From Blasia pusilla (Eukaryota), in assembly GCA_050084515.1 (NCBI GenBank), contig CM114271.1, positions 2,294,001-2,358,000 on the forward strand: DNA of 64,000 nt, written 5' to 3'. The notes below the pieces were generated by a model, which was not told where the DNA came from, did no database searches, and was given only the letters and a program-made list of their open reading frames with translations. Shown piece by piece: positions 446 through 31,520 of the stretch (position 1 is its first letter; every line of letters begins with the position of its first letter). The position numbers were made by a program, and so were the translations under genes.

Positions 446-1135
446 TCAGGTGACGACCTCTGCCATTCTCTTCAAGTCGGCTTCACTCAACCTCTGATGC
501 ATCAATTGCGCATCACCGTTCGGTGGCGTCAGTAGTGGAACCTCATCTTGGTCATTCTTGCCGCTTGAATGATCATGGCCATTTTCAGTTTCAGAGCCAG
601 TGGGATCTTCAGCTGAAGGCGTGACTGTCGTCACCTGAAGACCCTCGGGCAGCAAACAATTGCAAAACCTACCTATCCTCGCAAGCCTGTTCACCCAGCC
701 AGGAATGTCCTTGCCAGTTAACCTACAGCATATATCATTCGAGAAGTGGTTGCAGTTCTTTGAAATCAGATGGTAAGTGTCTCCGTTATACTGGTCGGCG
801 CAGGCCTCCATGAACTTATGGCATTCCTCGTGTGTCATGTCCGTAGTCCCTAACAAGACGCTACTGCGAAAAGTAAATCCTGGACAATGGCGCGGATCGA
901 CTTCAAATACTCCGCTGGTAGGGAAGTCGTGCGCACCGAAAGCATACTCCACATCATGCACTTCAATTCCCGAGTGGAAAATCCCGAGCCCAAACCAATA
1001 GCAATAGTCATTCATCGGCGTCAGATCGTAGACATTGAGATAGATGGGCACGCGAGTTTTGCCACTGCTTGGGGAGGAGCCCGACGCCGGGACAACAGCA
1101 CTTCCTCGCATTCTCTCCAGTCGAGTGTTTGTCAT
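446..1135 (-). CDS. DeSI/PPPDE-family deSUMOylating isopeptidase-like protein, single coding exon
   Basis: 229-aa ORF with the PPPDE motifs IYLNVYDL, GIFHSGIEVH (catalytic His) and YHLISKNCNHFS (catalytic Cys), plus IPGWVNRLARIG. The true start may be the second Met (MRGS). Confidence 0.93.
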   Translation of the reverse strand: MTNTRLERMRGSAVVPASGSSPSSGKTRVPIYLNVYDLTPMNDYCYWFGLGIFHSGIEVHDVEYAFGAHDFPTSGVFEVDPRHCPGFTFRSSVLLGTTDMTHEECHKFMEACADQYNGDTYHLISKNCNHFSNDICCRLTGKDIPGWVNRLARIGRFCNCLLPEGLQVTTVTPSAEDPTGSETENGHDHSSGKNDQDEVPLLTPPNGDAQLMHQRLSEADLKRMAEVVT

Positions 1136-1454
1136 TACCGACCGTCGATTGCTGCGCGGACTCCGACCAACAACTCAACTCACGCTGCAACCGCACAATT
1201 CCAGTCATCCAGGTAGGGCTCACAGATTCACATCACACAATCAGTCAACCCAAGAAGCCTGTCTGATTCCATACTCGATTCCCACACCCTCATCGTTCAG
1301 GCCTCTCCACCGCCTCGACTATCGTTCCAACCCTCCTCACGTTACAGGAGACCAATTCAGCCCATCCAGGTGCGAGCACTCTAGGATTTTGCAGAGTCAA
1401 CCTACCCGAACAAGCTGTCCCTCTCCGATTACCCTCCCACTATCACCATCACAA

Positions 1455-2160: not shown

Positions 2161-3329
2161 GGGAGGGGGGACTTCCTCTGTTGAGTACGATGACGACTGG
2201 GCTCGCTGTCTCCAGCTGGGAAGGACACCGATGCAATCTGTGCTCTGGACTTATGCATCCTCTCGTCCCTCTGACCCCCGCCCGCGCGTGGTACGCATCC
2301 TCCTCTGGTTTGGCAGGGTTGACCTGGGATTAACTCGGGATGCCTGTCGCTTCACTTAACTTGGAAGACACGGTAATTGCGCAAGCACCGGCTAAACTAA
2401 CGAGTTTCCGCAGGTAACCGGTAAATTTTGACCGGTTTGGGGCCTCTCCGAAGAAGGGGAAGAAATTCACAAGTGTGCGGCCAAAAGTTATTAAGAAGGT
2501 GTAAGAGAGATAGGTGGAAAAAACACACCTTGAGATGATGTATTGTAAATCTAGAAGTAGAAAGGAAATGATTAAAGTGGTGTAGAGTAGTTAGTAGTAA
2601 GTGAGTTTGAAAAGGGATAAAACATCATGTGCACTTAGAAAGTTATGGATGGTATATTTCAGGTGATATTGGGGAAAATGTTGACATGGATGACCTACAA
2701 GTGAAGAGTGTTGTAATAGAAAATGACTTTGGAGTAACCTTAGTAGTCATTCTAGTTTGAAAGCAAAATGCTGAATGGAATTTTGTGGACAGCCTAAATG
2801 TTTGGAGTGTTGTGTAATGTATGAATATTACCTTAGATGGATATATTCATTGCAGGCATGGACAATGATACTGAAGTGAGTTTGAATGAACGTGACATGT
2901 GCTTGGGGCAGGGGTAAGTGCAAAATTTTTAGTGGAGTTATAATGGTGAGTAGATGAATGCTTTGAAGACTATTTGTGTTGTATGTGTGGCTGTCATAGG
3001 TTGCGGTGAAGAAGAAATAGATTTTTGGGTGGATTTTAAAAACAGATATCATGTTATTTTTGGAATACATAATGGAAGGAACAATAAAGCATGAAATAGT
3101 AAGTTGGTTTACATAGAACTGAAGTGAGTGAAAAGTAGGCAGATCAATAGATAAAGATGAAATAGGAGATATACATGCTTATAAAGTATAGAGTACTTGT
3201 AGAGGTCTGCTCATACATAGAAAGTACTCTAATAAATTATATTAGTCGTATACCAACACAAGAATAAAAGTTCTTACAAAGTTATAGTGGGATAGAAGTA
3301 TTGTCTATCGAAAAGCAATAGCATTGCTT

Positions 3330-3843
3330 TGTCACGTCTTTTAGGATAGATCGGTGAGATCTAATAGAACGCCTTCATGAGTAGTGGAGGACACGCCTAG
3401 TAGGTCAAGGGTGACCTGTTGAGGCCCTTGGAAACCTGAGATAGCAGGTTTCCCCTTCGTTTCGGCTCATTTGGAGCCATATTGAGGAACTTACTATTTT
3501 AGGTAAGTACCATTTTGAGTATATGATCGACTTACTATTTTTGGTAAGTGGCCCTTGACTTCCTACATCAGGTCAAGAGCCAAGGAGGTGACTTGGGAGC
3601 ATAGGTTACCATGGAGAGAGCTTGGGAGAAGGGAGGGGTATACCTCAAGGAGAGAGAGCTTGAGAGCTCATTCTCTCTTTGTTGAACCTCTTGGCATGAG
3701 GCGGCGGAGCTATGGTACCTTGCCTTGTGAGTGTAACCCAAGCCTCTCATTAGGAGAGTGGGTTTGGGTTGACATGAGAGAGAGTCCACACCTTTGAGAG
3801 CTATGGTGTGAGATGGTGGAGAGAGAGATTGGATCTTACTTTA
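3330..3843 (+). repeat. E1 repeat A1 (514 bp)
   Basis: Direct repeat of 11155-11668, about 15 substitutions by eye. TATA-like GTATAC at about 3638-3643. Confidence 0.95.
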
Positions 3844-3858
3844 CAAAGAGAGAATGAG
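3843..3858 (+). promoter_or_regulatory. E1 putative self-priming site at the PBS position
   Basis: ACAAAGAGAGAATGAG is the exact reverse complement of 3667-3682 (CTCATTCTCTCTTTGT) inside repeat A. No TGG-starting tRNA PBS is present. Confidence 0.7.
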
Positions 3859-5435
3859 AGAATGAGAGAGTGAGAGAGCTTCATGGGGGAGCTCGCTCGT
3901 CACTCGCTTTTTTTGCAGGTTGGGGACCGTGTTCCCCGTTCAGCGGCTCATGGGAGTGCTCACCGGAGCAAGGGCTGGTTTCATTATTCTTTGCATTTGC
4001 CGATTTTTCGTGTGGAAGAGTGGCGCGCGGAAGCGCTGCCCAATTTCTGATAGGGATTGAGTATGGGGACAGGTTGCCCCATGCTGGTGCTCTCGAGAGC
4101 ACCATGTAGCTTGCTGATTTGTATTTTTACAGATGTTACATTTTGTTGGGAGAAATCAGCGGAGCGCTGCGAATTTTTTGTGTAGGAGAAAGAGACATTG
4201 GGCTTTACGACAGTCCCGTCAGTTTTACTGAAATTTTTGATTCTAAATATTTTTGATGCTGGCAAGATCGTGAAATTTGTGCACGTTGTGCAAGAAAAAT
4301 AGTGCACAATTTGGAGTTGTCCATTGAGCAAAAAGTTATGGTCAATCTTGTAAAGCTGCCATTGCTAGGCGATTTTTAGGTTAAATCGTGCAAATCCTAA
4401 ATTCGCCACACTCCCAAATCGTCGCCATCATAGTCACCGTCAACGGTCGACGGTCAACCGTCACCGTCATCAGTCGGCCGTCACCATCAGCGGTCAACCG
4501 TCATTGTCAACGGTCAACCGTCCATTGTCCTCCCTTTGGGTGCCATTGCCGCCATTACGGAGTGGAGGGTCTTCCACGGCGTTCGTTGATTCCTTGACTT
4601 GCGTTGCCACCACGTACTTTGTTTTGGCCGCCACCGTCATCGCATTTCTTCATCAACCAATGAAGGAGATGACCTCCGGTTATGGTGTTTGAGTTTTGAT
4701 TTCATGCTGCTATGTTGTGATTGGTAGCCGCTCGGCGGACGATCGAGTATCGTGCCGTGACGCCGTGAGCCGTAAGCCGCAACGCCGCGCCGATTGCCCA
4801 CCGCCCGTGCCGCTCGTGGCCGCACCGCACCGTCTCAATCGCGGAGCCGCACCGTCATTGTGGAGCAGAGTGTGGGATTATTATTGATTGAGGAGGGTAT
4901 GCCGCCGAGTGCCGCATCCCACCATCGAGGGCCGTGCCGTTCGTAGCCGTTCCGTGCCGCCTGCAACGCCGCACCGTTCCGCTGGGACCGCATTATCTAT
5001 CGAGGAGTTTTGAGCAGCATCAGTATGGGAGGAGTATGACTTGCTGATTGGAGGAGTTGTCTCCACGATCGAGTTGGGGTCGAGATTCGCAGTTGTTGAG
5101 GAGCGACATCGACATGTGTTCAGGTTACCCATTCTGGTCCTTTACCCTGCACGTGTGAGGGATTCTGGGATTTATTTGGGGATATTGGGTGTGTGGATGC
5201 TGAGAGCATCATTTATATATGTGGTTTAGGGGACATAGACCTGTGTGGGATGTCCGGAGTGAAGGGTAGGTTGTCGATGAGATGATAGCCTGGTCGATTT
5301 GCCGCACCACGCCGCGTGTTGCCGCACGTTACACGTCTCGGGGAGAGAGAGTGTAGATCGAGTGCCGCATGTTTGGGATGAGTGATTGAGGGATTCCTCA
5401 CGAGGTTCAGAGTGATCAGGTGAGAGGGGCACGAG

Positions 5436-6153
5436 GGTCATCACGGAGTCCGTTCGGGACTTTGAGAGGCGAGGTGGTGAACCCGAGAGTAGCTCTAGAG
5501 GTTTTACGCGGAGTGGCGCGAGGTTCCGAGGGTCTCCACGTGAGGGACCACCTCGACCTCCTTCTGTGTCATCGTCAGACGAGGGGGAGGTTGTAGAGGA
5601 GTTTGTGAGCACATCGCCACACGTTGTGAGTGGTCCTACCAGTTGGGCATACGAGATGGACGACCGGGGTAGAGGACATCGTAGGTTTACAGGTGCAGTA
5701 GGCACGATTGAGTTGCACGATTTTATAGCAGAGTTTAGGAGTTGGTGCGACTCCCAACGTGCCAGGAACTCTAGAGAGTTCAACCCATTTACAGCATGGA
5801 ACGGTATGTTCCAACATTTAGAGGGGGCGCCCATGGACGATTACCATGAGTTCTCTCGGAGAAATGCATGTGAGATCGAGGCGTGGAGGCTCTACTATGA
5901 CCCACATTATGTGTCATGGACGGAGCCGTTCCCAGATGAGGAGGAGGAGTCAGGAGAGGCTACTGCCTCTTCTACTAGTGACGTTTTAGGAGGAGTCACT
6001 CGCACGGGAGCAATTGCACCGTCTAGTCGGGTTCGTCCCAGGTTCAACCCTGTGGTTGAGTTCTTTGCTGAGTTGAGGGCGAGCTACCAGGGGGTACGGA
6101 CGGAGAAGTTGTGGAGCATCCACGACTTCCAGAGGCGCCCGGGTGAGAGTGCC
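5436..6153 (+). pseudogene. E1 gag-like region, C-terminally deleted
   Basis: RRFTGAVGTIELHDFIAEFRSWCD...LEGAPMDDYHEF aligns with the E2 gag fragments RRYSGAVGTIELEDFM and LEGPPMDDYHEF. Assigned as gag from its position upstream of pol. Confidence 0.7.
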
Positions 6154-6439
6154 ATCACTTGGCCTAGTGATTTGATTGAGGGACATGTCCATGCAGAGGA
6201 TACTCCCGTTCCTGACATTTCTATGGAGAGGAGTGTTATGGTAGCTGCATCATTCCGTGGAGGAGAGGTGTGTGGGGCTCGGACCGAGGAGCTTCAACGA
6301 TTCCCCGATGAGCACGCAGGCACCATGGCATGGAGCGCGGCGTTTGCACAGGCGTGATGGGTCTGAGGAACCCGAGGTAGCAGGGAGTGCTACGATGACA
6401 CCCTTGGATACCACACCCATTGTGTGGTGTACCCTGGAG

Positions 6440-7360
6440 GAGGGTATTCGAGTGTTAGATCTCTTTGGAGGGATTAGCACCGGGTTAGGTGCTGTTTTGC
6501 AGGCATGAGTGAAGAAATCTGGCCAGCACTGTATGTGGAGAGTGATGATGTTGCAGGGCGCGTCTCACTACGACATGTGGCGCAATTACGCCCACGTTTT
6601 CCCGACTTATTATGCGTCCGCGTCTGAGGATACCGAGTTCCCTACCGAGGATATTTTTTGTTGGGGCGCAGGACTTAGAGCGGTAGGGACCATTGATTTG
6701 GTCATTTCCGGTTGGCCATGTTAGGGCCAATCGAGTCGGACGAGGCAAAGCGGCGGGTTGGCGACACTCGGTCCAGGTTGTTTTGGGAGATGTTGAGGGT
6801 CTTACGGCAGTTGCAAGAGCACCAGTCTCGTTCTCTAGCCTTCATTCTCGAGAATGTGCCGATCTTAGGAGACTCCAAGTCACGGGTCGTGACGAGTGCT
6901 CATCAGGTGCGTGCCTGGATCGGCCCAGCAGTGTTCTTGGATGCGGCGAGGGTAGGTTCTAGAGCCCATCGCCCGCGTCTATGGTGGACAAACTTGGTGC
7001 CCCATGCGTTGTTATGGAGGGCGTATGCGAGAGTGGAGCGCCCCTCCCCTTTGTTAGTGGATTCCATTCTGGATCCAGGTCGTCGATCACAGGCAGTGAG
7101 GCACGATGATCGACCACCGCTGATTGTGGTCAACAGGGTAGGCAGGTCGCGGGCAGCCTTGCCCACGTTTGTGAGTTTTCCCGCTTCCTATGCATACAAG
7201 GAGGCCGGTCCTGGCTTGGTTTGGGATGACCAGGTTCAGCGGTTGGTGGAGCCCAACGCCGACGAGAGAGAGCGAGCGATGGGATTTCCCACAGGAGTGA
7301 CGGCAGTACCATCAGTGTAAGAGGCATCACGACGCCATGTCTTGGGTCAGGCGATGGACT
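6440..7360 (+). pseudogene. E1 DNMT3-like C5 cytosine DNA methyltransferase domain (frameshifted)
   Basis: Motif I VLDLFGGISTG, motif IV DLVISGWPC (next codon TAG where E2 has Gln), motif VI FILENV, motif VIII AHRPRLWWTN, motifs IX/X ERERAMGFP...VLGQAMD. Confidence 0.9.
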
Positions 7361-7849
7361 GGCGCTTGACATGGATCCTCGGCTTGGGAGTGGTGAGCAA
7401 CGCGTCATATGAGATCGCGACATATCACAACGGTTGCGTTGGTGAGCCCCATGCCTACCGAGACGGTGGAGGCAGTGGCTGGGGGCGAGACCCGAGGAGA
7501 TCTACGCACCAGGGGAGATCGGGAGAGACACCCTTGGACTTCTTGGGATGTTTTGAAGGTACGCAAGGAGATGATAGCCACAGCATCGAGCGTGGTTTCG
7601 GGCACTGCACGTGGAGGAGATCAGAGTTTGCAGTTGGCTGCAGGAGAGCGGCCGAGTGTTGTTGTTCAAGAGGGGTTGCACCATAGCAACCACCGATACC
7701 GCGCCGGAGAGTCCCTCGTAGTCACGATGGAGACTTGGGAGCCGATATGGGCCCTAAGTTGACAGGGGAGGAGAGCGGCGCCGAATACATCGTTCCTCGA
7801 AGTTATAGGAGCGCTGCGTTTAGCATGGAGGATTTGGGTACGTTGAAGG

Positions 7850-9160
7850 GACCGGGGATCCGCATTGAGTTGTCGAGTGATATGCCGATCTTCCGACGAC
7901 CCTACAGGTCTGATGATATGGAGAGGGCTCTGATTCAGAGTAGGAGCCAGGACTTGGTCGGAGCAGGACTAGTGGAGATGTCGCATGGGGAGTATGCATC
8001 TGCCACTATCATGCCCGCCAAGAAGGATGTGCATGGCAACTGGACGGATAGGCGGATGTGTGGGGATTACCGACCTATCAATCGGCAAACGAAGTCCGAT
8101 AGGTATGCCATGCCCACCCCTGAGGAGATCTTTGATGCGATTGGTAACGCAAAGGTCTTGATTCATTGATTTCGAGCCGGATACCATCACCGCCTATCGA
8201 TTGGAGGACAGGCAGAAGACGGCATTTTGGGGCATCGATCCTCACGGGAAGGATTGTTTGTACCAGTGGTGGTTCTTACCATTTGGGTTAAAGAACGCCA
8301 CGGCTGAGTTTCAGAGGGTCATGGATAGGATCTTGGCTGGTCTGGATTTTGCTAGGTGTTATATTGATGACATTGTAGTCTTTAGCGCCACGGTTGAGGA
8401 GCATGAGCAACATCTAGAGGAGGTGTTTTGACGATTGCAATTACATGGGCTGAAGCTACATCCAGGCAAGTGCAAGTTCTTCTATGACCAGATTGAGTAC
8501 TTGGGTCATACGATATACCCAAGGGGGCCTTGGTGTTCAGAGCGAAGGAAGAGGCTATCTCACGCATTCCACGCCCTACAGATGTGAGCCGTGTTCGCGC
8601 ATTCATGGGATTGGCGAACTTCTATCGGCGATACGTCAAGGGATTCAGTTCGATTGCGAAGCCGCTGACCTTGCTGACCAAGGTGGATCACGAGTGGCAC
8701 TGGGGGAATGAGCAGGAGCGAGCATTTCGATTGCTCAGGGGATAGGTTGGCGTCCGCACCCATCTTGAGGAGACCGATCAGGGGGCGTCCTTTCCAGTTG
8801 CACACATATAGGAGCATGTTGGGGCTTGGAGCGGTGCTCACCCACCATGATGATGAGGGTAGAGAGTTCGTGGTGGCTTCCGCTAGCCGCTCGAACAACG
8901 CTGCAGAGGCGAAGTACAACTTGTATGAGGGTGAGTGCTTGGCTGCGGTGTGGGTTGTCGCGCATTTCAGGTGTTACTTATTCGGAAACCCCTTTACCAT
9001 CATCACTGATCATCAACCACTGAAGTGGTTGATGGAGTCCGACAAGCTTACAGGGAAGCTTGCGAGATGGGCTCTGTTGTTGCAGGAGTATGATTTTCAG
9101 GTGGTACATAGACCTGGGACGCTCAACCAGGATGCAGATGGGTTGAGTCGTAACCCATGC
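7850..9160 (+). pseudogene. E1 reverse transcriptase and RNase H (Ty3/Gypsy type, frameshifted)
   Basis: RMCGDYRPIN, KTAFW, LPFGLKNA, CYIDDIVV, FMGLANFYRRYV; RNaseH GLGAVL, YEGECLA, IITDHQPLKWL, LARWALLLQEYDF, NQDADGLSR. Confidence 0.95.
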
Positions 9161-9529
9161 CTGAGTCAGCGAGATGCGACTGGAGCTCGATGGCATGGAG
9201 AGAGTGATGAGTAGTCGGTGCCAGGATAGCACGCGTCAGCCTATTTAGGCATGTTGGCTATGGAGAGCCAGAGTGTGGAGACTTCGATGGCGAGGTCTAG
9301 TGGAGAGTCCTTGGATCCCGAGGCCAGTGAGGACACGACAAGTGGCCGACATATTCATGATGATGGAGTATTCTTAGAGTACCTTCGTACTGGCAGCCTT
9401 GCAAGCACCATGGATACTAGAGAGCGGGATCGGATCCTACAGCGGGCCAGACGGTTCCGTTGGGAGGGGACACATATTTTGAGGGTTTGGGAGGATGGCA
9501 GAGTACGCTTAGTGCCGCATCCTTCACAG

Positions 9530-10600
9530 AGAGCACGACTAGTGCAGCATGCCCACAAGGAGTTGGGTCACTTTGGGGTGAAGCGGACGTATAGCTTGCT
9601 CCACATTCAGTATTGGTGGCGAGGCATGCAGAATGACGTTCAGCAATTTGTTGCCAGGTGCATGGTGTGTGATCGGGTCCGAGCATCGTTCAATGCTCCG
9701 ACTCCACAGTTGCATCCATTACCGATCATGGGCTTAGGGTATAGATGGATTTTGGATTTTGCAGGACCTTTGCCCTTGACGGAGCGTCACAGTCGTTATG
9801 TGTTGGTGATGGTCGAGCACTTCTCAAAGTGGATCGAGTTGGTTGCATTGCGACAAAGCGAGTGAGGGAGTAGCTTATGCCTTCCTTGACAGAGTCTTTG
9901 AGTCATTATGGCGCACCGGCGGAGTGTGTTGAGACCAGGGTACCGAAGTTTCGCGGTGAGTTCCAGGCCTTGTGTGATCGGGGGGCGATTCGACCACCGC
10001 CACGACGCGAGATCATCCTGAGGCGGATGGATTAGCGGAGATAGTTGTGCAGACGGTGAAGAGGGTTTACGCAAGTATGGCTTGCGAGAGAGGTCACCTA
10101 GGAGATTGGGACTTCAGTTGCCATGGTTGGCGATGGGATCTGATTCAGCGAGCACGCATCCTTAGCGTCTTTTTCACCGTATTTGCTACTTTATGGCGAG
10201 CCGATTTACTGCGGCCATTCGTCGAGATCTTTGGTGAGGTTTGAACCTTGATGACCAGATGTATGGGTGCGAGCATGTTCTCGAGGGCTGAGTTATTTCG
10301 AGAGTGATGCCCATGGCGTTCGAGAACTTGGCGATTGCACAAAGATCGGATACGTTGAGATATGCGACTATTCGTGGTGGTGGTTATCGACCAACTATCC
10401 GGAGGTTTCATCAAGGAGATTATGTCTACTTGCGCAGACGGCACCAACGGCGTTGGATGTGATCGCAGGCGCACTATCCGAGAGTGCGTGACATTTTGCC
10501 ATCGGGTGTTCTCTTCTTGTTGGAGGGACGCGATGGTATGGTATGGAAGGACCATGTGCGTAATTGTGCGCCATGTCACCTTCCTAACATTGATGGTACT
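9530..10600 (+). pseudogene. E1 DDE integrase (frameshifted)
   Basis: HHCC zinc finger (HAHKELGHFG...CMVCDR), core WILDFAGPLP and YVLVMVEHFSKW. The downstream core is broken by indels but is collinear with the E2 integrase. Confidence 0.9.
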
Positions 10601-10641
10601 GAAGAGATCCGAGCTTAGCGATAGTTCATGCGGGCTTGCGT

Positions 10642-10782
10642 TGTATGTTGTGTAGTTACGCCGTGTAGTGCGCCACGATGCTAGTCTATGATGGGTGTTC
10701 GAGAGGATGGCATATGGCATGTTTGACGCCACCTCTCACTAGGGTTCCTCAGGGACAATGGATGTGTCCCAGATGTACATAG
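10642..10782 (+). pseudogene. E1 PHD finger at the integrase C-terminus
   Basis: CMLC...MLVYDGCSRGWHMACLTPPLTRVPQGQWMCPRCT-stop; C4HC3 pattern with one Cys mutated to Tyr. Confidence 0.88.
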
Positions 10783-10993
10783 AGAAGGTAGTTCTACATT
10801 CCGACTTGTATCTGTGACATGGATGACAAGGAGGCGACTAACGATGGGGCCACATGAGCATCCGGTTTTCTTGCTCTTAGCGTCGAATCGAAAAAAAAGA
10901 AAGCAAATAATTCTATTATTATTAATAGAATTTTCTGCTTTCTTTTTTTACGATGTATGTCATGGTAGGTAGGGATAGATGGCTATCTGGAGT

Positions 10994-11024
10994 TAGAGGG
11001 ACCTAACCACCAGCTAGGGGGGCG
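10994..11024 (+). promoter_or_regulatory. E1 conserved polypurine-tract-like element immediately before B1
   Basis: TAGAGGGACCTAACCACCAGCTAGGGGGGCG, 29/31 identical to the E2 motif at 28477-28507 (-). Confidence 0.65.
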
Positions 11025-11796
11025 ATTGGAGATATTTTGGTACTTCTTGTCTCGTTGTTTGGATGCCATGAGTTAGCATGGGATCATGCGTGTTTGTGTG
11101 TGTGTTCGGTGACAGCGATGTATGTTGTGTAGCGATGTGTATGCGCACGACAGCTGTCACGTCTTTTAGGATAGATCGGTGAGATCTAATAGAGCACCTT
11201 CATGAGTAGTGGAGGACACGCCCAGTAGGTCGAGGGTGACCTGCTGAGGCCCTTAGAAACCTGAGATAGCAGGTTTCCCCTTCGTTACGGCTCATTTGGA
11301 GCCATATTGAGGAACTTACTATTTTAGGTAAGTACCATTTTGAGTATATGATCGACTTACTATTTTTGGTAAGTGGCCCTTGACCTCCTACATCAGGTGA
11401 AGAGCCAAGGAGGTGACTTGGGAGAATAGGTTACCATGAAGAGAGCTTGGGAGAAGGGAGGGGTATACCTCAAGGAGAGAGAGCTTGAGAGCTCATTCTC
11501 TCTTTGTTGAACCTCTTGGCATGAGGAGGCGGAGCTATGGTACCTTGCCTTGTGAGTGTAACCCAAGCCTCTCATTAGGAGAGTGGGTTTGGTTTGACAT
11601 GAGAGAGAGTGCACACCTTTGAGAGCTATGGTGTGAGATGGAGGAGAGAGAGATTGGATCTTACTTTAATTGGAGATATTTTGGTACTTCTTGTCTCATT
11701 GTTTGGATGCCATGAGTTAGCATGGGATCATGCGTGTTTGTGTGTGTGTTCGGTGACAGCGATGTATGTTGTGTAGCAATGTGTATGCGCACGACA
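11025..11796 (+). repeat. E1 right-end repeat block B1-GC-A2-B2
   Basis: B1 11025-11152 and B2 11669-11796 are both 128 bp with 2 differences seen. Junction CACGACA-GC-TGTCACG at 11146-11161. A2 is 11155-11668. Confidence 0.95.
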
Positions 11797-13944
11797 GCTT
11801 ACATAAAAATGCAACTCCCCTATGGTGTACTCTATGGAAACGTCTACTCTAAAGTGTAAATCTAGAGCAAGGATGATATCTTTGTTGCCTTCCGCTGTAA
11901 GTCTAGTTTACTTTGCACTAAGTCTCTTGCATCTTCCAAGAATTCATTGAAGTACTAATTTGCCTCTACAATATTGTGCTTGTATTGTGCACTCTAAAGT
12001 GTAGATTCTTTGGATTCATCTGCAAGTATCAAAATTTTGCTCTTGAGTACATCCACATCTTATCTTAGATGTGCATTCTGATCTTGCAAATAGTCGATTC
12101 TTCTCAAGAGTCGTTGGTAAACCTACAGTGTGATGTTGGAAGCTGGAGTATGCTCTGAAGTAGATGGTGCAACAGGAGGTGGATGTAGAGGTTGAATTGC
12201 TGAAGTTGTCCTCTCGTTGTATGGCGGGTGATGTGTCGAGAGCCTTATCCGAACCTGGGAGTAGAAAGAAATTGAAGTGAGTCAAATCTGAAATTGAAGT
12301 GAGGTAAAGCAGGAATAATGAAATGGAAGAATGTAGACAAATAATTACATTGATATTGGAAACAAAAAATTATAAATAGAGTACATTGTGTGGGAAGTAA
12401 AATGTCTTGAAGAACATATCTTATTGCATGGAAGAAAATGGAACTATACATATGTTTGGATAGGTAAATGTAAGAAACAGTAGACAAGAAATGATCCATC
12501 AGACTTGAAAGTAGAAAATGTCATTGAGTGATGAAACAGAGGCAAAATTACAAATATAAGTAGGCATTGTATGCTTGAGTAGAAGTGTCCAATTGAGGTA
12601 GTGTTTCCAAAGAACAAGCAATTTATATGTTCAACTACATAAGTTGCTTAAGAAAATTTTGGAAATGTTGAAACTATTGATAGAGAGTGAAGAACACATG
12701 TTGCAAGTATTCTTATGGGCACACATTCAAAATCACAGTAAAGTTGGAAAATTGTTCATTGGTTGTACCACCTAAGAAAGTAAGCAAGGTATGTAGTTAG
12801 TTGGAGCAATGAATAACAAAGCTTGGAAACAAGAAGTGAATGAAATGCATACATTGCAAGATACAAGAAAGTAACTTACCAAAGTGATAAACTATGCGCA
12901 CTTTCTCTTCCCTAGAGAGCTTGCACTTGCGCTAGGTTGGAAAGTGTAGAGGTCAATAATGATATCAGGTAATGTGACCTCACTTTTGACATCTTGAAAG
13001 TCTGGGAGAATGGGAACTATGTGTGGCTCATCAGTCTGCTAGGCATTGAACTCACGGAACTCTCCATTTGAACAAGTTAACTTCATCTTGGAGATGAGAT
13101 GGCTTCCTTTGGTGCTAGTCAAGTCAATCAGCATAGAAATGGGCAAGTGAAATCCATGATGAAGCGTGTGTAATTGATCAAGTTTAATGCCAACGGAGGC
13201 TATATTGAACAGTCTATTCCCCTAAGAGCATGTTAGGGATGTTTCTTTGGCAAGTGTATCAAATGCCATTGGATAATATATGTGATGATAAAGGAAAAAA
13301 AAAGGACAATACATTCCCTTAAATTTTGGCCTATGGATTGCTCAAGTAATCTAAATAATTTTATGAAAAATTAAAGTTCTACTCTTTTTATCTATGACAT
13401 ATGTATTGCATATACAATCCAGTTCTATAAAGTTTTATTGGAACAATGGATGGTCTCCTTCCTTCATTTATTACCTATGCAATACACATAAAATCTAAGT
13501 AGTTCTAAGAAAAAGTAGACCATCTATTCTATTCCTTTGGGATTTACATATTGCATGCGCAATTTATGATCAATCTTACCAATAATTATGTGTCAAGTAG
13601 ATGATCAACTTCAAAGGAAATTATGTATGGCAGATTGAGAATTCCACTTCTCTTTAAAATTATTGTGTCTTTTGTTTAAAAAAGATGTATCATATGATTT
13701 GGTGCAAACATATGGTTTAAATTGTTCATGTAATATTTGAGAAAAATTTACCTTATGAAAAAATAACCACAGACCATCCGAGAGTATATGGAGAAAAAAA
13801 TTGATGACCAAAATTGAATGGGAAATATTTTTTAAGTTATTTTTTACAAAAAAATTAAAAATAGATGATGGTGAAAATGACATATAATACCTTAAAAAAT
13901 TCGATTAGATAGATCGATTGACTAATGGATAGGGCCATGCTAGT

Positions 13945-14075
13945 TGTCATGCACACACATTGCTCTCACCGAATACACACAAAATACCATACTAACTCAT
14001 GTCATCTAAACATCAAGACGATGGAGTATCAAAATATCTTTAATAAATCAAGATCTCTCACAATAGGCACATAAA

Positions 14076-14115
<40 letters not shown>

Positions 14116-14555
14116 AACCAAACCTACTCTCCTAATGAGAGGCTTGGATTACTCACAAGGTAAGGAGGACCATAAATCCACTGCCTCATACCAAAAGGTT
14201 CAACAAAGAGAGAATGAACTCCAAAGCTCTTTCTCCTTGGGTATACTCCCTTCTCTCTCCTAAGCTTTTTCCATGGTAACCTATGTTTGCATGTCACCTC
14301 CTTAGCTCTTGACCTATGGTAGGAGTCAAGAGAAAACTCCTAGAGTGAAAAGTCAAGTATGCTTATATTGACAATTTACTTGAAATAGTAAGTTTCTATA
14401 TATAGCTATAAATGAGCCCAAAAAAATGGAAAATCTGCTCTCTCTCAAGTTACCCGAGACCGTAATAAGTCATCCTCGACCTCCTCAGGCTATCTTCCAA
14501 TATCCTAGAAGGCACTATACGATAAACTCGTCAATCTATCCTAAAAGATGTGACA
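13945..14555 (-). mobile_element. Degenerate solo A+B unit related to E1
   Basis: Reverse-complement similarity to E1 B then A (e.g. actctcctaatgagaggcttgg, ggttcaacaaagagagaatga, ctatcctaaaagatgtgaca). Flanks are TAGT and TAGC (3/4 TSD). Confidence 0.85.
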
Positions 14556-15811: not shown

Positions 15812-16426
15812 TGTCACATCTGAGTAGTCGATAGGCCGAGATCTATCGTGGATAGGGCGTAGGAGCCAGCGGACTATCTTGAGTGCAACTTTGTCTCACG
15901 GTGTCGGATGAGGTTGAGGATAGGTCCATTGTGTCAGGAATGTCGTTCCGCTAACTTTCATGTTGAGGTCTTTCACAATCGGATGACTTGTTGACCAGGT
16001 CACCCTCCCATGGTAACTTGTGCGCGCAGGTTACCAAGGGGAGGGTTATTTTTAGGGGAAGAGCCTTTTGGCTCTTCCCAACCCTATATAAGAGAGGAAG
16101 GTGGCTTTCCTAAGCCATCTTTCTCATGTTGGGCTGTTGGAGCACCTCTCTTGTATGTGTGTGAGATAGGACTTAGGTGCTAGCGTCCGGATTCTTTGAT
16201 AGATAGTGGACGAGGGCGCGCGCTCCTATGCGCGCCTCCCACCGTCCGCATGTCGCCGCCCGCCGCCTGCCCATCCACGACCGTCGCCGTTATGTGATCT
16301 CCATGTATATGTATGAGTTGATTTTTGTACATGTGTGGATCAACGTGTGTGTGAGGAAGATCGGTGTTGTGTGGTGTAGATGTGACCAGCAATGTATGTG
16401 GTGTAGCGATATGTATGCGCACGACA
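15812..16426 (+). mobile_element. Solo A+B unit of a third related family
   Basis: Starts TGTCACATC and ends GTGTAGCGATATGTATGCGCACGACA, nearly identical to the E1 B end. Perfect 4-bp TSD TCTT (15808-15811, 16427-16430). TATATAA at 16085-16091. Confidence 0.88.
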
Positions 16427-19400
16427 TCTTCACTATCCATGTGTCCATTAATTATTTTCTCGCCCCACCCCTCTCAAAGGGCCGCATTGGTTAACTAGTG
16501 CAGCGACCCCAGAAATAGGATGTAGTTTTATTAAATAAATAAAAAAATGAAAATGTATGTGTACATATAGATAGTAAAGAGACCCACAATATAATTTTTT
16601 TAAAAAAGTGTACTATAAAGGCATTGACACCTAATTTTGTGTAGAGTAGTCTTCAATACAAATGGAGAGACACAAGGAAAAATAGAAAAGAAACGAGACC
16701 AATTTTGTGGTTGTGCATAGTAGTCTTCAATCCAAATAGGGAGACACTATGTAGGCCTTCAATACAAACCATCGGGAAGACACTACGTAGGCATGGGAGA
16801 GTATAGCAATCTTTAAAATTATAGATGAGAGAAGAATAGTATATTCAACTATAGCTACCTTCAAAATTATGGAGGAGAGAAGAATAGCATATTCAACTCT
16901 TATTAGTATGTTCACCGATTAGTATAGTATATTCAACTCTTATACCATGCTGATAGATGAACACACTATACTAATCCAACGGGAATGTAATGCTTATTAT
17001 TAGGTTAACATAATTACATTAATGCCATTTGGGATGAGCATTTACATGAAGTCTTACATACGGATGCATACCAAGGATGCTAAAATACAAAGTAATTAAT
17101 ACAAACCTTTATAATAATAGGCACCAAACCATAAAAGGGATGGTGTAATGAAGACTAAGACTCGAACGTGTGGTAGACCACAAAGAGACATCAATACGAA
17201 TCCATGTGGCATTGGCAAGTGACCCCATAAACCTAATCCTAGAGATATATCCCGAATTTTATTGTTCCAAATCACTTTAGGGATTCGCCGGAGCACTACG
17301 GATAAAATATGTAGTTATGCACAACCACAACTTAAGGCCATTAAATCCGGCCGTAATTACTTTTTCTCCCACCCCTCTCCAAGGACGGTACATAACACGG
17401 TGCTCTTTTTCCCTAGCCATCTAGACTATCCACATGTGTCGTATGCACACACATGCGTTAATTATTCTCTTCTCCACTATTAGGGCGTGTCCCGTGACAC
17501 GCGCTAATATAGCCCGCCATAAAAGTGTTTACAACATATTCCCGTTCCTTTGCAGCCGAAGTGAGGAGTCGCATGAAGCTTACGCGCTGCGCTGTGTCAC
17601 TGACAGATCTGGTGCAAAGAGCGAGGCCTGACAGGGCGTTCCGTAAGAAGGTTCTCGTAACGAGAGATGCGGTGCTGCGCGGGCTCGAGCGGGAGGTTTG
17701 TGGGAGGAGCTTCGCGAGCGGAGGGGCGGATCCTCCTGCCGCACACAAGGTTTGCATCTGTGCTTTGCCCTGCATGGAATGGAGTGGAGTGGAGGGCTGT
17801 GGAATGCGCATTCGTGTTTCTTTTTCGTTTCTTGGCGATGAGAGTTTCCCGTTCTGCTGTGGAGGAGAGATTGAGGAGAGTTTTGACTTCTTTTGTGAGG
17901 TTTGTGAGGGCGCGCGGCTTTCGCGCGCGCTTGTGGAGAATTGAGGAGTGGTTGGGGTTGGTTTGTGAGGGTGGGAGTGTGATCGCTCGCGGAGAATTGA
18001 GAAGCGTCGGGATTGTTTCGCGAGGATGGTGTTCTACAGGGAAGAATTTGAGTGGAATGTGATGAGGTTGAATTCTGGGTTTGAATTGCGTGAAGTGTGA
18101 GTGGATCAGGTCTGCTGTTGTGGTGTTCGAGGTTTATCAAAAGCAGTGAGAGTTGAGAAATGAATGAGGTTGATGGATCTGATTTTTCCGCATGAATGTG
18201 GTGAGTAAGTGTATCTCGGATGAAAGTTCGTGCCTTTCAATTTGATTTTCCTGCTCGTGTGGGACGGGGCTGAGCTGGATCGACTGCCACCGCTCGCGGT
18301 TATCATGATTGATCCGACTCAAGCGTAACAGGGACGGGCTGAAGAATTGACGAGTGTTGGTGCGAAGTTGAGAATGAATCTATGAATAAAAATTCTGACA
18401 GAAGCAATCGAAGGGATCGGAGGCGTCGTAGTATGAAATTCACGAAATCTGGTGTCAAAATATGGAACCAGCTTTTCGTGTGAACATGCGATTTGTCAGC
18501 TGAGCACCGAAGCACTTGTGTAAAAGCATAGAAGATACTCGTGTCCGATTTCTGTTGCGACATTTTTCCGTTCGAGCTGAATTCCAATTCAAGAAGGGTA
18601 ATTTGGATCCAAATCAATTTATGGGACTAAAGTCGGTGAAGCTAAAGGTTGGCGCATGCATACGGTCGTTCCGGATTTTTGTGACACCAAGTAGACCTGC
18701 GTATCGCTGTCCCTCGTCACGACACAGGAAGTAAATCCGCAAAGTTTAATTGGATACCATTGCATCCGTTTGAAACAGCTGAGGGAATATCGTTGGTTAG
18801 TTTCTTTCCTCGAAGCCGTACCTGGTCAGGGGTGTACACTCGTCCGGGTGCTAAGCAGGTTGAGCTCGCAGACCTTCACTGTAGGGTTTACTGATCTGTT
18901 GTGCATGCGGGAAGAATCCGGCAATTCTCTTACTTTTCATACCTCGGAAACACTGTCTCCATTCCTGAAATTTAGAGGGCCAATGGTTTTACTCTTTCGT
19001 CTTCAGGAACGTTATGTGTGAAGTTTAGTGCTCGATTACTTGTAGCAGCCAATGTGTGAGCGAAGGAATTCCTAATTTCGGAGTAGGTTTGCAGCCTGCC
19101 GGTAAGTTTACAAATCTGCTAAAAAATTCGGTTAATTTGACTGACCTGTGCGGACCTTGCAGATTGATTGTGAAGTTATCCTCATGACTGGAAGATCAAT
19201 AGATAAACGAAGCCTTGGCCGAGCCATGGAGCCCTCCTGCCACCTGAGGTAAGGATTTATTTGATTATCTCCTGAAAAAAAGTCTCAGTTAAGCCTTGCT
19301 CGTAGTATAGCCTACTTTTGCTCGTAGTTGTAGTTGCACAGTATCGATTAACTGTCTTGATTAGTACTGGATGAATGCATTGGGATTGATTGTGAGGGCA

Positions 19401-25473: not shown

Positions 25474-27895
25474 ATATTGTAACATTCTGTTTTCTTCTTC
25501 TTTGTAACAAACTTACGTCTGGGATTTCTTGGTTCGACAGCCTTGAAAGGGGCTTTATAGAGAACTTGTGCAATAGAATTTTGACCAGGAGCGAGCTCTG
25601 TTACTACTGGGATAGCTGATTGAAACAGTGCGCTCTGTGTGCCTCACGAACATTAGCTGTAGTGTTGGTAGATCCATATTGTTCAGTTTCTTGTAGCCCC
25701 AATGCCATATTTCGAAAGTCATGCTTGCTTAATTGTCAACGACCTCAGTGAAGGGCAGGATGGTGGCTATCTCCTGTATTAAATTTGTGTAACACAGCTG
25801 ATGGTTGGCCAAGGTGGCTTGAAAACAACCCATATGGTTTTCAATGCATGAAAAATCTCTTCAGAAGGTCGGCCAAAATTCCAAAAAGGACTTAGACTCG
25901 TCTAGGTCCTAGTTAAAGTTAAAGTTTCATTTCGAAGGCTCATTGAGTGCACTAATGGGGCAGATTGTGATATTAGCAAGAGGGGATATCATCTTGATTT
26001 GTCATAAGTTTAGGATTATCGTCTCCAAAGAATTTGGTTAAAATGCCCCTTCAGGAAAGCTAGTCCTTTGCTTCGTGATGGTAACTTAGTAAAGTTCACC
26101 TCTCTACTCCAAGTCGAGTGTTGTGTAACACTCGTAGTTGATTCCTTCGATATGAAGGAGCCTGAAAAACCATTTTTTAGACTTTTGGAAAACCATAATT
26201 TGCCTTTCCGTGGAGTTTTCCATCACAATAATGGATGTTAATACTCTAAAATGTCAATTGTTTTCTTCATTCAAATTTAATTGTATAGAATGGGAAAACA
26301 AATGAATAATGCTTTCTTTCAGGAAATTTTCCCATCTTCTAGACTACTTTTAGTACTTCATACGTGTAATCTTCAATGGCATTTGCCATCCAGATGTTTG
26401 TAGTAGACTATAGAAGTTTACTTCTTTTCCCTTCATAGAAAAATATTTTGAAGATAGGGAAAAAGTAATATATTCCCTATAACTTGTCTTGTCTTTTCTT
26501 TTCTTCAGCCAAATGGAATGAGGTTGAGGGAAAGTGAATGAATGAAGGTTTCCCCCCCCTTAATAATTCGATGAAACTTTTTCCCACATGGAACTTTTCT
26601 ACATTATTACTTGACTAGTAAATTTTTGGAAAAATGGAGAAAGATATAATATTGGGATTCAGCTGGAATAGGAGGATAAACTAAATCTTGGAATATTTTA
26701 GAAAATCTACATTAGGGCTCTTACAAGTTCACCATTTTTCTCTTCTTTCCATGTAGCCTTTCTGCGCCCCCTACAAAGAAGTTAGATATTTATTTTCGTC
26801 CTAACCCTCTCGGAGGGCTGCACATTGGATTGAGAATAAGGAGACTGGAAGATAAAATTTTCTCCTAATGAATGATTGGATTTGGGATGTTACATATTCC
26901 CATTCAACACGATTTCATTTCATCAATGATCTTGTAACACATGTCACCAAACAAAAACACTATATTGGTAGTAGTTTTGCCAAATTTGAATGCCTCCAAA
27001 GGGCCCATTTAATAACCATTTTTCAAATCCAAGTTTTTCATATGCTTTTATGGGTACTTAAAGTCCAGCACCTAAAACGATGCTTGCATTCCTAACGGTC
27101 CCAACTGTCCAATGGACCTCGTGCGAATCCCAAACCGAGATCCAACTAAATGAGTCGCAGGTTGGAATCCAATACGGACCTCCAAAATCCGCTCTATTGG
27201 ACTTGATTCGGATTTCGAATCCCAACGCTAAAATCCCGATGAATTTTGTACCCTTGGATCGTCCCGCGGCGCCCCAAAGTGAAGTTCGAGTCCCAAGCAC
27301 TCTTGGAGACCTTCCCTCTTATTAATATGTCTGGGGTTCTTCGTCCTCCCACCATCTTTGGGCCACTCTTTTTGGTCCTCAACCTAAATCTCCATACAGT
27401 CATTTCTAAGAACTTTCTCAACCTATGCTTATGTGTTTGCTAACATCTTAATGCGTTGGAACTAGATTCACATAAGCTTTCCAACGCCATCTTATTTGTC
27501 CCAAACACATCTTGGGACCAAAAGTTATGATCCAAAATACAGTCAAAACCCCAAACGCTAGTCACGTTCCAAATTTGGTTCTCACCTCTTTAGCAACCAC
27601 TCTTCCTAGACTCGACTCCTCTCAAGTCTTGGTTTACGTTTGGTTCAGGTTTCCTAGTTGCGACCATAAATGCATAAAACGCTAAACCTTGCTCGCTTCT
27701 CATCTCTTGTGTCTCTTGCGTCTCTTCTAAGAGATCACTCCAACGCGCAAATCATCCTAGCGTGAGCCTGCTAGAATTCTGATGTTCTGCTTGGTGCTCG
27801 TTTGGTTATGAGGGTCGCGACACCCAAGTTCCGCATCTTATCTCGATGGAAGTAAAGACACTAGAGGAAATCTTGGTTTTTATGCCTCTAATAAA

Positions 27896-28476
27896 TGTCG
27901 TGCGAATCCACATCGTCATACAACATACATTGCTGACATACCATACTCACATACATACATAACATAGACGAGAGCATCCACAAACACAAGTGTACCACAA
28001 CTGAAATCCGTGAAAGACCCACTGCCATAAAACACGTATAGAATCACATACAATCGAGCCAAACCCACTCCACGATGGGAGAATCTAGGTCGAAGCTTGG
28101 AAACACCATAGCCAAGAGCTCTACTCACTACCAAGGCTAACTCCCAAGCAATGAGGCTCAACTCAAAGAACTCGATTTGTTCTTTGAGTGCACTCCACCT
28201 ATATCCTCCAACCTAAGAGCGGGCCCTCTTTGGAAAAGTCACCTCAACCGAGTAACCTCCAACCCTATGTATGAAATCGCATCTCTACCTAGACACTGCG
28301 GCCCTACATAAGGTATGGCCTCTACTAGCACACTATACTCTACGACATAATCCGTATGGTCATGACAGCTGTCGTGCGAATCCACATCGTCATATAACAT
28401 ACATCGCTGACATACCATACTCACATACATACATAACATAGACGAGAGCATCCACAAACACAAGTGTACCACAACT
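27896..28476 (-). repeat. E2 terminal repeat block B1-GC-A2-B2
   Basis: 27896-28002 repeats at 28370-28476 (107 bp). 28003-28367 repeats at 37297-37660. Junction GACA-GC-TGTC at 28364-28373. Confidence 0.95.
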
Positions 28477-28648
28477 CGCCCCCCTAACTGGCGGTTAGGT
28501 CCCTCTAGCTTCCAGGTATCCCTATACATCTACTACATGCTATACACCTTCTTGGGTGCACGAATCAAAAGGCCGGGTGCTAGGTTGCCCCATCGTTAGT
28601 CGCACATCTATAATCCATATCATGCAAAGATCAAGTCATCTACCCCTC

Positions 28649-28789
28649 CTAAGTACATCGAGGACAAACCCACCTTCCAGTAGGAACAACATCCATACAT
28701 GGAGTCAAACACATCATGTGCCAACCCCTAGAACACCGATCACACACCAACATACGGGTTGCGTTACCAGCAGACCCACACAACATGCA
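28649..28789 (-). pseudogene. E2 PHD finger
   Basis: CMLCGSAGNATRMLVCDRCSRGWHMMCLTPCMDVVPTGRWVCPRCT-stop; intact C4HC3. Confidence 0.92.
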
Positions 28790-28829
28790 CCTCAAGCTAG
28801 CACGTATCATGGCTAAGCTTGGGTCAACA

Positions 28830-29900
28830 GTACCATCCACATTTGGAAGATGGCGCACAATTACGCACATGGTCCTTCCAAACAACTCCATCACGACCCT
28901 CCAACATGAGAACTCCAGAAGCTAACACCTCGCGCACTCGTAAAATAGTGCGCCCTGCTGTCACATCCAACGTTTTCGGTGCAATCTGCTGCAAAAAGAC
29001 ATATTCCCCCACATGGAACCTACGAATCGATGGTCGATAACCTCCACCCCGAATAGTTGCATACCACAACGTATCCCTGTGTTGAGCAATGGCAAGATTC
29101 TCAAAGGCTGTTGGCATAACTCTCCGAAAGAGCTCTGCCCGCTGAGAACACACTCTCATCCACATCTCTGGGTCATCAAGGTTCACCACCTCACTAGACC
29201 CCCGACGAATTGCTGTTGGCAAGTATGGATCTCGACCGTATAACAGAAAATAAGATGAGAAGGAAGCCAAGGATGCTTGGCGACTGAACCTATACCCCAT
29301 GGCTAACCATGGCAACTGAATATCCCAGTCTCCAAGATGCCCCTTTTGTAGGCCATACTTACGCAATGCCCTCTTCACCGTCTGAACCACACGCTCAGCC
29401 AAACCATCCGCCTCTGGATGATCTCAAGACGTGGTCCGATGATCAATCAACGCCTTGTCACACAAGACCTGAAACTCACCCTAAAACTATGTACCCTGGT
29501 CGGTCAGTACTTCAACCGATGCACCAAAATGACTAGCACTCTATCAAGAAACGCATACGCCGTTCCCTCACTTGCCTTGTCCGGTAATGCCACCAACTCA
29601 ATCCACTTGGAGAAGTGCTCCACCATCACCAACACATATCGATGATATCGTACAGTCAACGGTAACGGTCCCGCAAAGTCCACACTCCAACGGTAATCCA
29701 ACCCCATAATAGGCAAGGGGTGTAATTGTGGTGTAGGGGCATTGAATGATGCCCTCACCCGGTCACAAACCATACAACATGACACCAACTGCTGCACCTG
29801 AGTATGCATGCAACGCCACCAATGCTGACCAAGGAGTAAGCTATATGTACGCTTTACCCCAAAATGTCTCAACTCCTCATGGGCATGTCGCACAATGCGC
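28830..29900 (-). pseudogene. E2 DDE integrase
   Basis: HAHEELRHFG...CMVCDR, WSVDFAGPLP, YVLVMVEHFSKWIELVAL, TDQG, AERVVQTVKRAL, YFLLYGRDP. Confidence 0.92.
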
Positions 29901-30289
29901 TCTCTCTGAGCCAAATGCGGCACTACTCGTACTCTACCATCCTCCCACACACGGAGAATATGTGTTCCCTCCAATCGATACCTCTTAGCACGTTGAAGAA
30001 CACGGTCTCGCTCCTTGGCACTCACTATGCCTGGCACCCTACTGGTCCGTAGGAACTCCAACACCAACGCATCATCATGAATATCACGCTGATCCGTACC
30101 ACAATCTCCAACCTTAGGATCCGAAGGCTAGCCATCTACCCTCTGACTAGAGTAAGATATCATGTGGTCCTCCATACTAGAGTCCATCCCTAACCAACAT
30201 AAAAAGGCGAATGCATGCCAACCTGGCACCATCTCCTCATCATCCTCGCCATGCCATCTAGCCCAAGTTGTATCCTCTTGGCTAGTACA

Positions 30290-31520
30290 TGGGTTCCTAC
30301 TCAACCCATCAGCATCAAGGTTGGCAACTCCAGGTCTATGTACCACCTAGAAGTCATACTCCTGTAAGATAAGCGGCTGGTGATCAGTAACAAGGGTAAA
30401 CTGTGTGCCAAACAAGTAACACCTAAAGTGTGCCACAGCCCACACTACTGCCAAGCACTCTCCCTCATATGAACTATAGCGACTCCGCTGCATTATTCGA
30501 ACGACTTGCATAGGCCACCACAAACTCCATGTGCTCATCATCATGTTGTGTCAACACCGCTCCAAGTCCCAACCTACTCCAATCAGTGTGTAACTGAAAT
30601 GGGCGCCCTTTGATAGGTCTCCTCAAGATAGGCGCCGCCACCGACTGGGCCTTAAGCTCTACAAAAGCTCTCTCCTGATCATCTCCCCAATGCCACTCTT
30701 GATCTGATTTCAGCAATTGGTTCAAAGGCTTTGCTATAGCACTAAATCCCTTCACATACCTCCGATAGTAGTTCGCCAATCCCATGAATGCCCGAACTTT
30801 ACTCACATCTACCGGACGCGAAATAAGTGCAATAGCCTTCACCTTTGCTTGCTGAACTCCCAAACCACCTGGATAGATCACATGACCCAAGTACTCAACA
30901 TCCTCATGGAAGAACTTACACTTTCTAGGATGCAAACGTAGACCATGAGCTTTCAACCGCTCAAACACCATGTGCAAATGTATCTGATGCTCCTCCACCG
31001 TGTTACTGAACACCAAGATATCATCAATGTAACACCGAACAAAATCCAACCCTGCTAGGATCCTGTCCATCACTCTCTGAAACTCGGCATGTGCATTCTT
31101 CAATCCAAAGGGTAAGAATTTCCACTGGTACAAACAATCCTTGCCATGAGAGTTGACACCCCAAAATGCTATCTTGGCCTTGTCACTCTCCCGAATCGGC
31201 AATTGATGGTATCCTGCCCGAAGATCCAAAGTACTGAAAATATTTGCCTGTCCCACTACATCAAAGATCTCTTCAGGTGTAGGCATGGCATACCTATCGA
31301 CCTTGGTTTGCCAATTGATAGGACGATAATCTCCACACATCCGCCTATCCGTGTAGTTGCCATGCATATCCTTTTTAGCAGCATGCATGGGGTGGCGATG
31401 CATACTTTCCATGCGACAACTCCACTAATCCAGCCTCCAAAAGGTCCAACGTCCTACTCTGAATCAGGTCCCTCTCCATATCACTATATCGGTAGGGACG
31501 ACGGAAGATTGGCGTATCAC
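30290..31520 (-). pseudogene. E2 reverse transcriptase and RNase H
   Basis: ORF 30474-31412: RMCGDYRPIN, FSTLDLRAGYHQL, LPFGLKNA, CYIDDILV, LHTDWSRLGLGAVL; then YEGECLAVVWAV, TDHQPL, DADGLSR. Confidence 0.95.

Follow-up and report, generated by a model that had tools for sequence, protein, structure and literature searches.

How does a retrotransposon with a retroviral-type integrase insert itself when its copies end in split repeats instead of a pair of complete long terminal repeats (LTRs)? The question is raised by two elements, E1 and E2, in a 64,000-nucleotide stretch of the Blasia pusilla genome (contig CM114271.1 of assembly GCA_050084515.1, positions 2,294,001 to 2,358,000), hereafter the window. 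Both are laid out as A-internal-B-NN-A-B, where A and B are repeat segments and NN is a 2-bp spacer, and both are flanked by 4-bp target-site duplications (TSDs). At the B-NN-A junction the right-end and left-end sequences of the element meet head to head in the palindrome GACA-GC-TGTC (GACAGCTGTC), which occurs exactly twice in the window, at 11149–11158 in E1 and at 28364–28373 in E2, as a first-pass annotation of this DNA had reported; 0.06 sites would be expected by chance, and two copies were obtained in 0 of 100 shuffles. Judging from the structure of many copies, we consider it very probable that the replicative LTR is B-GC-A, that the integrase cuts at the internal CA-NN-TG site, and that the A/B boundary near the 3′ end is a fresh end join.

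Two abundant, self-priming Ty3/Gypsy families are represented by E1 and E2, both of them dead; stops and frameshifts disrupt both long copies. Boundaries were drawn from self-alignment of the window and inspection of the ends. E1 lies on the plus strand, where the left target-site copy GCTT (3326–3329) is followed by A1 (3330–3842), which begins with TGTC, the left attachment (att) sequence. The other end comprises B1 (11025–11152, 128 bp, ending in GACA), the spacer GC (11153–11154), A2 (11155–11667, 97% identical to A1), a single A at 11668, and B2 (11669–11796), which ends in GACA, the right att sequence, and adjoins the right target-site copy GCTT (11797–11800); the palindrome is the uncut att site of the downstream LTR. 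E2 lies on the minus strand (37660–27896, TSD TTTA), with A1 at 37297–37660 next to the target copy at 37661–37664, B1 at 28370–28476 (107 bp), A2 at 28003–28367, and B2 at 27896–28002 next to the target copy at 27892–27895. In both elements the polypurine tract (PPT)-like motif GGGGGGCG directly adjoins B1 (11012–11024 in E1 and 28477–28489 in E2) and a primer site follows A1 (3843–3858 and 37286–37296, respectively), in agreement with the earlier reading. That reading had also described an A2/B2 overlap of 0–1 bp: E1 has one added A, which is the first base of its primer site, and E2 has one A in common.

The layout recurs across the genome. Exact patterns for the E1 family matched 743 PPT-B starts, 811 A-primer-site joins and 1,043 A/B joins, and complete PPT-B-NN-A ends were found 702 times for the E1 family and 408 times for the E2 family (1,110 standard ends). 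Searching with a generic pattern for the CA-NN-TG junction gave 2,964 matches versus 33 for the control, with palindromic sites counted twice; among 23 loci sampled, 22 proved to be PPT-B-NN-A ends from either family and one a chance match. Twenty young copies were followed upstream, six of which had no A1 start in range; in the other 14, the TSD bounding A1 to B2 was a perfect 4-bp repeat in 11 and had one mismatch in three. Insertions show a palindromic target preference, T-NN-[TSD]-NN-A. One locus in which A runs into internal sequence at a contig end (L171) was set aside as a probable collapsed assembly, and L331 was left out. In another copy (L004/L129), A1/A2 and B1/B2 are identical, yet it has a diverged, broken pol and a GT spacer, a pattern that suggests a decayed copy recently mobilised in trans. 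Outside Blasia, five full-length relatives on metagenome contigs, with proteins 47–61% identical to the query, share this layout and also have a CACGACA-NN-TGTCATG-like junction and a self-primer; three have a perfect TSD, one a TSD with one mismatch and one none. They come from 55 metagenome loci with at least 500 bp past the gene, of which 5 show both repeat pairs and 14 more the B pair only, the others being without such repeats.

That the A/B join is made anew at each insertion by end joining is well supported by comparison of copies. Among 60 distinct B-A-B ends, 37 joins have no insert, 17 have one A and six are of other kinds. On a tree built without the junction, the join state requires 14 changes, and 14.6 with labels shuffled; the corresponding figures on that tree are 1 against 17.4 and 4 against 14.9 for variants read in B2; a pol tree of 19 copies gave the same outcome, the join state not following the tree. 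This indicates that each copy makes its B2 afresh from its B1, and that the join is not inherited. Stronger evidence comes from what long joins contain, those with inserts of 3–32 nt: of 37, 18 open with no fewer than 3 nt of primer-site sequence (at most the entire site and some bases past it), 10 close with no fewer than 3 nt of PPT sequence, and nine are of other kinds. One of these nine (L342) has AGGGTTTAGGGTTTAG, which we take to be a plant telomere-type repeat, within an otherwise standard 3′ end. The diagnostic primer-site inserts are those in full 3′ ends (for example L066, L247, L248, L250 and L255). Primer-site and PPT remnants are what one would expect if the two ends of a linear complementary DNA (cDNA) were joined before their primers had been fully removed; they place the cDNA ends at the end of A and the start of B, so that the reverse-transcribed LTR would be B-GC-A, as the first-pass annotation had proposed. 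The same ladder of joins (A, AC, ACA, ACAA) is present in an Illumina DNA run. No clear filler copied from the host flank was seen in 33 long joins, where the longest outside matches were 7–8 nt or element-derived. Separately, in four loci (L065, L070, L084 and L286) the sequence past the 16-nt primer site turns into inverted A from position 353; these loci represent fold-back or inversion events that involve the primer site and the A sequence complementary to it.

In every intact junction of the family, the spacer of the internal att site measures 2 bp, and its sequence is free: of 60 copies, 23 have GC, 19 AC, 11 GT and seven other dinucleotides. An invariant GC is rejected, and it is the length that proves constant. 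Fixed length, free sequence and loss at the element ends would all follow from a cut staggered after CA on both strands. The G>A form of the spacer is also carried by about 45% of Illumina RNA reads, and assembly or long-read error is therefore rejected as its source. The spacer cytosines ranked first and third among about 400 C/G sites near the 3′ end (9/27 and 5/27, versus 3.7% for other CTG sites). Hypermutation by the methylase aimed at the spacer was considered and not counted, given that CTG sites in pol reach 30–44% and that no increase is seen at other AGCT sites. Four copies (L044, L051, L055 and L060) have small insertions or replacements where the att site was left uncut; these are possibly repair footprints of a cut, or else assembly errors.

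We propose that the integrase att sites, originally at the LTR ends, were relocated to U3 and would now lie there head to head as CA-NN-TG. The RNA would begin inside A1 and, as its complementarity suggests, its 5′ end would pair past A1 and prime minus-strand DNA. Because of the positions of the PPT and the primer site, standard LTR reverse transcription would produce the cDNA (B-GC-A)-internal-(B-GC-A), with ends that lack TG and CA. One staggered cut after CA on each strand, at the palindrome of the upstream LTR, would then leave two CA-3′ ends with 2-nt 5′ flaps, as in processed retroviral ends, for which a recessed CA-3′ end with a 2-nt 5′ flap is the established geometry. The CA-3′ ends would be inserted with a 4-bp stagger and the flaps lost, and the true right (A) and left (B) ends of the cDNA would be end-joined, as indicated by the scars, to give A-internal-B-GC-A-B.

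Which of the two att sites is used can be read from the side products, and in more than 99% of cases it is the upstream one. The pattern join-B-NN-A has six matches in the E1 family (three chance, three rearranged 3′ ends and no mirror product) and four in the E2 family (two chance, one tandem end and one true mirror product). This single mirror copy (L345/L349) reads A-B-GC-A-primer site-internal-PPT-B, the predicted alternative A-B-GC-A-internal-B, and has the perfect TSD AAGT. One mirror product versus 1,110 standard ends corresponds to an upper 95% bound of about 0.5%, the patterns differing somewhat in strictness; the mirror count is taken from a shorter pattern together with 69 sampled A-primer-site loci, in which a whole B upstream with internal sequence downstream was found 0 times. 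To derive the mirror product from a standard copy, recombination would have to proceed through about four events at one locus, and the product is therefore good evidence for a two-LTR intermediate with two usable sites. A symmetric two-LTR circle is rejected, since two identical sites predict about half mirror products. Of the circle-integration model of the first-pass annotation, then, the B-GC-A replicative LTR, the end joining and the internal CA/NN/TG cut with loss of 2 bp are supported, and the symmetric closed circle falls. The model consequently needs a rule that picks the upstream site. We favour the simplest, the timing of reverse transcription: after second-strand transfer the upstream LTR would be double-stranded at about 0.6 kb of synthesis and the downstream LTR at about 10 kb, and the integrase would commit to the first. 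Alternatively, the upstream site may be picked for its proximity to the free left end, or one site may be marked by the methylase that the element encodes.

Two versions of the mechanism, which differ in whether the join or the integration comes first, appear about equally likely. In one, whose probability we put a little below even, ligation of the cDNA ends first yields a closed two-LTR circle, the obligatory substrate, which an integrase pre-bound to the upstream site then opens and inserts. The joins resemble retroviral circle junctions in being mostly exact (37/60 without insert, 17/60 with one A), the mirror product exists, and for HIV it is reported that integrase can cut two-LTR circles, which are then integrated (PMC4372172). 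A finished circle has two identical sites, however, at odds with a mirror form this rare, and the integrase would have to wait for ligation, an extra control step. In the other version, equally somewhat short of an even chance, the integrase cuts linear cDNA at the upstream site, holds and inserts both pieces, and leaves the free A and B ends to host repair, with no circle. Product and scars would be identical; the telomere-type insert of L342 and locally templated fillers point to a free A end in the nucleus, and the upstream site lies only 107–180 bp from the end of the linear DNA, a possible reason for the bias. This version implies a double-strand break at every insertion, and the lack of clear host-flank filler in the 33 long joins speaks against it. 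It is unlikely that the reverse transcriptase itself jumps from the end of A to the start of B over a common A, with host repair acting in a minority: some reverse transcriptases do jump end to end, and in both E1 and E2 the primer site and B start with A, a 1-nt microhomology, but telomere-type and templated fillers require host enzymes and the site bias would be left unexplained.

Two further explanations dispense with the internal cut. Copying of the PAT/Ngaro type, in which RNA runs through B2, the internal B-A junction supplies the ends anew and the A/B join is inherited, would suit the shared A1-B1-A2-B2 layout (PMC4157794) and the presence of some read-through RNA. It is largely refuted and very improbable, as the join is not inherited and carries primer and PPT remnants, and the element encodes a DDE integrase, is flanked by a 4-bp TSD and gave no match to a recombinase. 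Read-through transcripts had been named in advance as evidence for PAT/Ngaro copying; some RNA does cross A2/B2, which does not rescue that scheme given the non-inherited join. Ordinary LTR elements that were inserted in a nested or tandem fashion, or assembled wrongly, could be suspected from the heavy frameshifting of young copies (assembly error or decay) and from rearranged ends (L091, L092, L095 and L348), yet the layout is shared by more than 1,100 copies of two families, the joins occur in independent Illumina contigs, and five full-length relatives from other samples have the same structure; we regard artefact as refuted, its probability being negligible.

Several observations weigh against the proposed mechanism of internal cutting and fresh end joining. 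Its evidence base is inserted copies, from which the cDNA, the circles and the integrase activity are inferred, and the upstream bias is matched by no tested feature. The star-like, poorly resolved trees limit the power of the join-heritability test, two pairs among the 37 long joins look like duplicated loci, and primer-site inserts in solo A-B copies are also explicable by deletion. An uncut (B-GC-A)-internal copy was not found in the 69 A-primer-site loci, except for a partial B in L071. The predicted A-internal-B form was found at five of 49 PPT loci, twice with a perfect TSD and three times without a left end in range, and is equally explained by B1-by-B2 recombination; solos, too, may arise by recombination after insertion. 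Finally, in three raw RNA runs under the same species label, 10, 6 and 3 sense reads cross the insert-free A2/B2 join, compared with a depth of about 160–270 in mid-A.

This read-through past the join is real but minor. Sense transcription covers the whole 3′ end in the three runs and derives mostly from copies 90–95% identical to the reference. Depth drops over the last 120 bp of A, which fits polyadenylation in A, an edge effect being the alternative; no pile-ups of RNA starts or ends were seen in these runs. As for the partial B just mentioned, in locus L071/L344, A1 and the primer site are preceded by 55 bp of B and a 2-bp spacer, and the att site is decayed. The locus may represent the left end of a cDNA that escaped cutting; a 3′ LTR was not found in the next 10 kb.

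Complementarity predicts that the elements prime themselves, as Tf1 and Tcn1 do. Over 16 nt in E1 and 11 nt in E2, the primer site that follows A1 is complementary to a site within A itself, and it is not a tRNA primer site. In E1 the 16-nt site at 3843–3858 is the exact complement of A 338–353 (3667–3682), which coincides with the inferred transcription start about 30 nt below a TATA-like box (3635–3644); the self-primer region folds with z = −5.2. In E2 the start is predicted near A position 196. Three of 204 element ends (L011, L304 and L334) lie at A 325–328 of another copy, 10–13 bp above the inferred start, and raise the possibility of an insertion hot spot in the family's own promoter; breaks in A at about 321–329 also occur in L048 and L286.

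Pfam scans of the element frames matched a C5 methylase, reverse transcriptase, RNase H, H2C2 and rve integrase and a PHD finger (PF00628). Pol is ordered protease-reverse transcriptase-RNase H-integrase, where the protease was recognised from its motif only, without a Pfam match, and is deleted in E1. The best solved-structure match of Pol is Ty3 Gag-Pol (E=2e-58), with foamy-virus integrase also among the best, and those of the methylase are DNMT3A/3B. The catalytic D, D and E of the integrase are invariant across 30 relatives, with a spacing, judged from the L140 integrase and the alignment, of D,D(34)E across the lineage; the usual integrase spacing is D,D(35)E, one residue longer. No chromodomain follows the integrase, its place being taken by the PHD finger, and no tyrosine recombinase (PF00589) was matched in the element-frame Pfam scans or in a genome search, the latter not proving absence. 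In E1, all on the plus strand, a broken gag-like region (5416–6150; gag match in copy L136, E=0.007) is followed near 6150 by an internal deletion of some 1.9 kb, seen by comparison of copy L132 with the window, which removed the protease region; then come the frameshifted DNMT3-like C5 cytosine methyltransferase domain (6350–7320), reverse transcriptase and RNase H with frameshifts and stops (7687–9211), and the broken H2C2 and rve DDE integrase with C-terminal PHD finger (9230–10800). An AT-rich hairpin insertion of about 67 bp lies upstream, near the E1 PPT (10881–10955), and is missing from other copies. The internal region of E2 (28490–37285, minus strand) holds gag-like, protease-like, DNMT, reverse transcriptase, RNase H, integrase and PHD segments with stops and frameshifts. 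The TG...CA ends, the 4-bp TSD (Ty3/Gypsy elements make TSDs of 4–6 bp), the primer site and the PPT are also those of a Ty3/Gypsy retrotransposon. By its proteins the element is Ty3/Gypsy, and its inserted form is that of a non-canonical LTR element and not of a PAT/Ngaro member; two complete LTRs are absent from the ends of inserted copies and are present in the inferred cDNA alone.

Named protein relatives occur in Riccia, Calypogeia, Marchantia, Sphagnum, Closterium and Klebsormidium, and K. nitens proteins are 41–56% identical to the reverse transcriptase-integrase stretch; no K. nitens protein was among the 35 matches of a DNMT search, which covered longer proteins only. A protein of the chlorophyte Chromochloris (P0150) has a similar methylase with RNase H, integrase and PHD, so that the lineage may extend beyond streptophytes.

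Elsewhere in the window, E3 (13945–14555, minus strand, target copies GCTA/ACTA) is an older solo A-B of the E1 lineage. Two relics of about 130 bp, at 16312–16439 (plus) and 54289–54416 (minus), are 79% identical and have B-like ends, one in GCGCACGACA; they are probably right ends of a further related family. A host gene piece at 446–1171 (minus) encodes a PPPDE peptidase domain (PF05903, E=2e-50), and a compound tandem array with units of 39, 68 and 107 bp occupies 56829–58308.

The closest published system is KnitGypsy-Dnmt3 of Klebsormidium nitens, for which the legend of Fig. 4 gives a DIRS-element repeat structure with Gypsy domains (de Mendoza et al. 2018, PMC5890265). It shares with the Blasia elements the Gypsy domains, a Dnmt3-related methylase in Pol and DIRS-type A-B-A-B repeats, whereas the text consulted, figures aside, describes no att palindrome, TSD, self-primer, PHD finger, join scar or mechanism. 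A 2026 preprint mentions a streptophyte Gypsy-DNMT3 only as methylase capture, in the part available. Tf1/Sushi and plant Tcn1 are self-priming Ty3/Gypsy elements (Neumann et al. 2019, PMC6317226) that likewise have a DDE integrase, use no tRNA primer and live in non-seed-plant hosts; they have ordinary paired LTRs and a chromodomain, in contrast to the PHD finger, DNMT and permuted ends found here. Because that survey required paired LTRs, it would miss the A-B-A-B layout. Integrase cutting of head-to-head att sites after CA on both strands has precedents in foamy virus, whose integrase cuts the palindromic circle junction in this way (PMC1180852), and in HIV-1, whose two-LTR circles can be linearised and integrated (PMC4372172). 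In retroviruses the palindrome is created by the end join and the path is a side path; in the Blasia elements it is encoded in the LTR, the end join forms a separate non-att site, and the route would be the main one. PAT, Ngaro and VIPER have the same split direct repeats, A1-open reading frames-B1-A2-B2 (PMC4157794), with a tyrosine recombinase in place of the Ty3-type reverse transcriptase and integrase, PPT, primer site and 4-bp TSD. The layout has thus already been noted for KnitGypsy-Dnmt3, and we found no published account of its mechanism, of an internal att site or of join scars in the literature covered, outside of which lay figures, some supplements, most subscription papers and Repbase reports.

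Exact cDNA ends are thought to be indispensable to LTR elements, since they form the substrate of the integrase. The lineage described here appears to uncouple the two, in that sloppy, primer-bearing ends are simply joined and the integrase acts on an internal head-to-head site. If this is true, a retroviral side reaction has become a main route, the Klebsormidium layout, noted but unexplained, is accounted for, and the split-repeat layout arose with two unrelated integration enzymes. A wider reading, to which we give slightly less than an even chance, is that of an old streptophyte-wide Gypsy clade, from Klebsormidium to liverworts and mosses, with the end-joined two-LTR circle as obligatory substrate and a PAT/Ngaro layout reached convergently with a DDE integrase; such elements would represent a natural, main-route form of the circle model that was dropped for retroviruses. 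In its boldest form, which we hold to be quite improbable, the element's own DNMT3 would mark one att site and thereby set which is cut. With more than 1,100 copies here, these families are likely to be missed or mis-bounded by search tools that look for paired LTRs, and their relatives in Marchantia polymorpha offer a genetic model.
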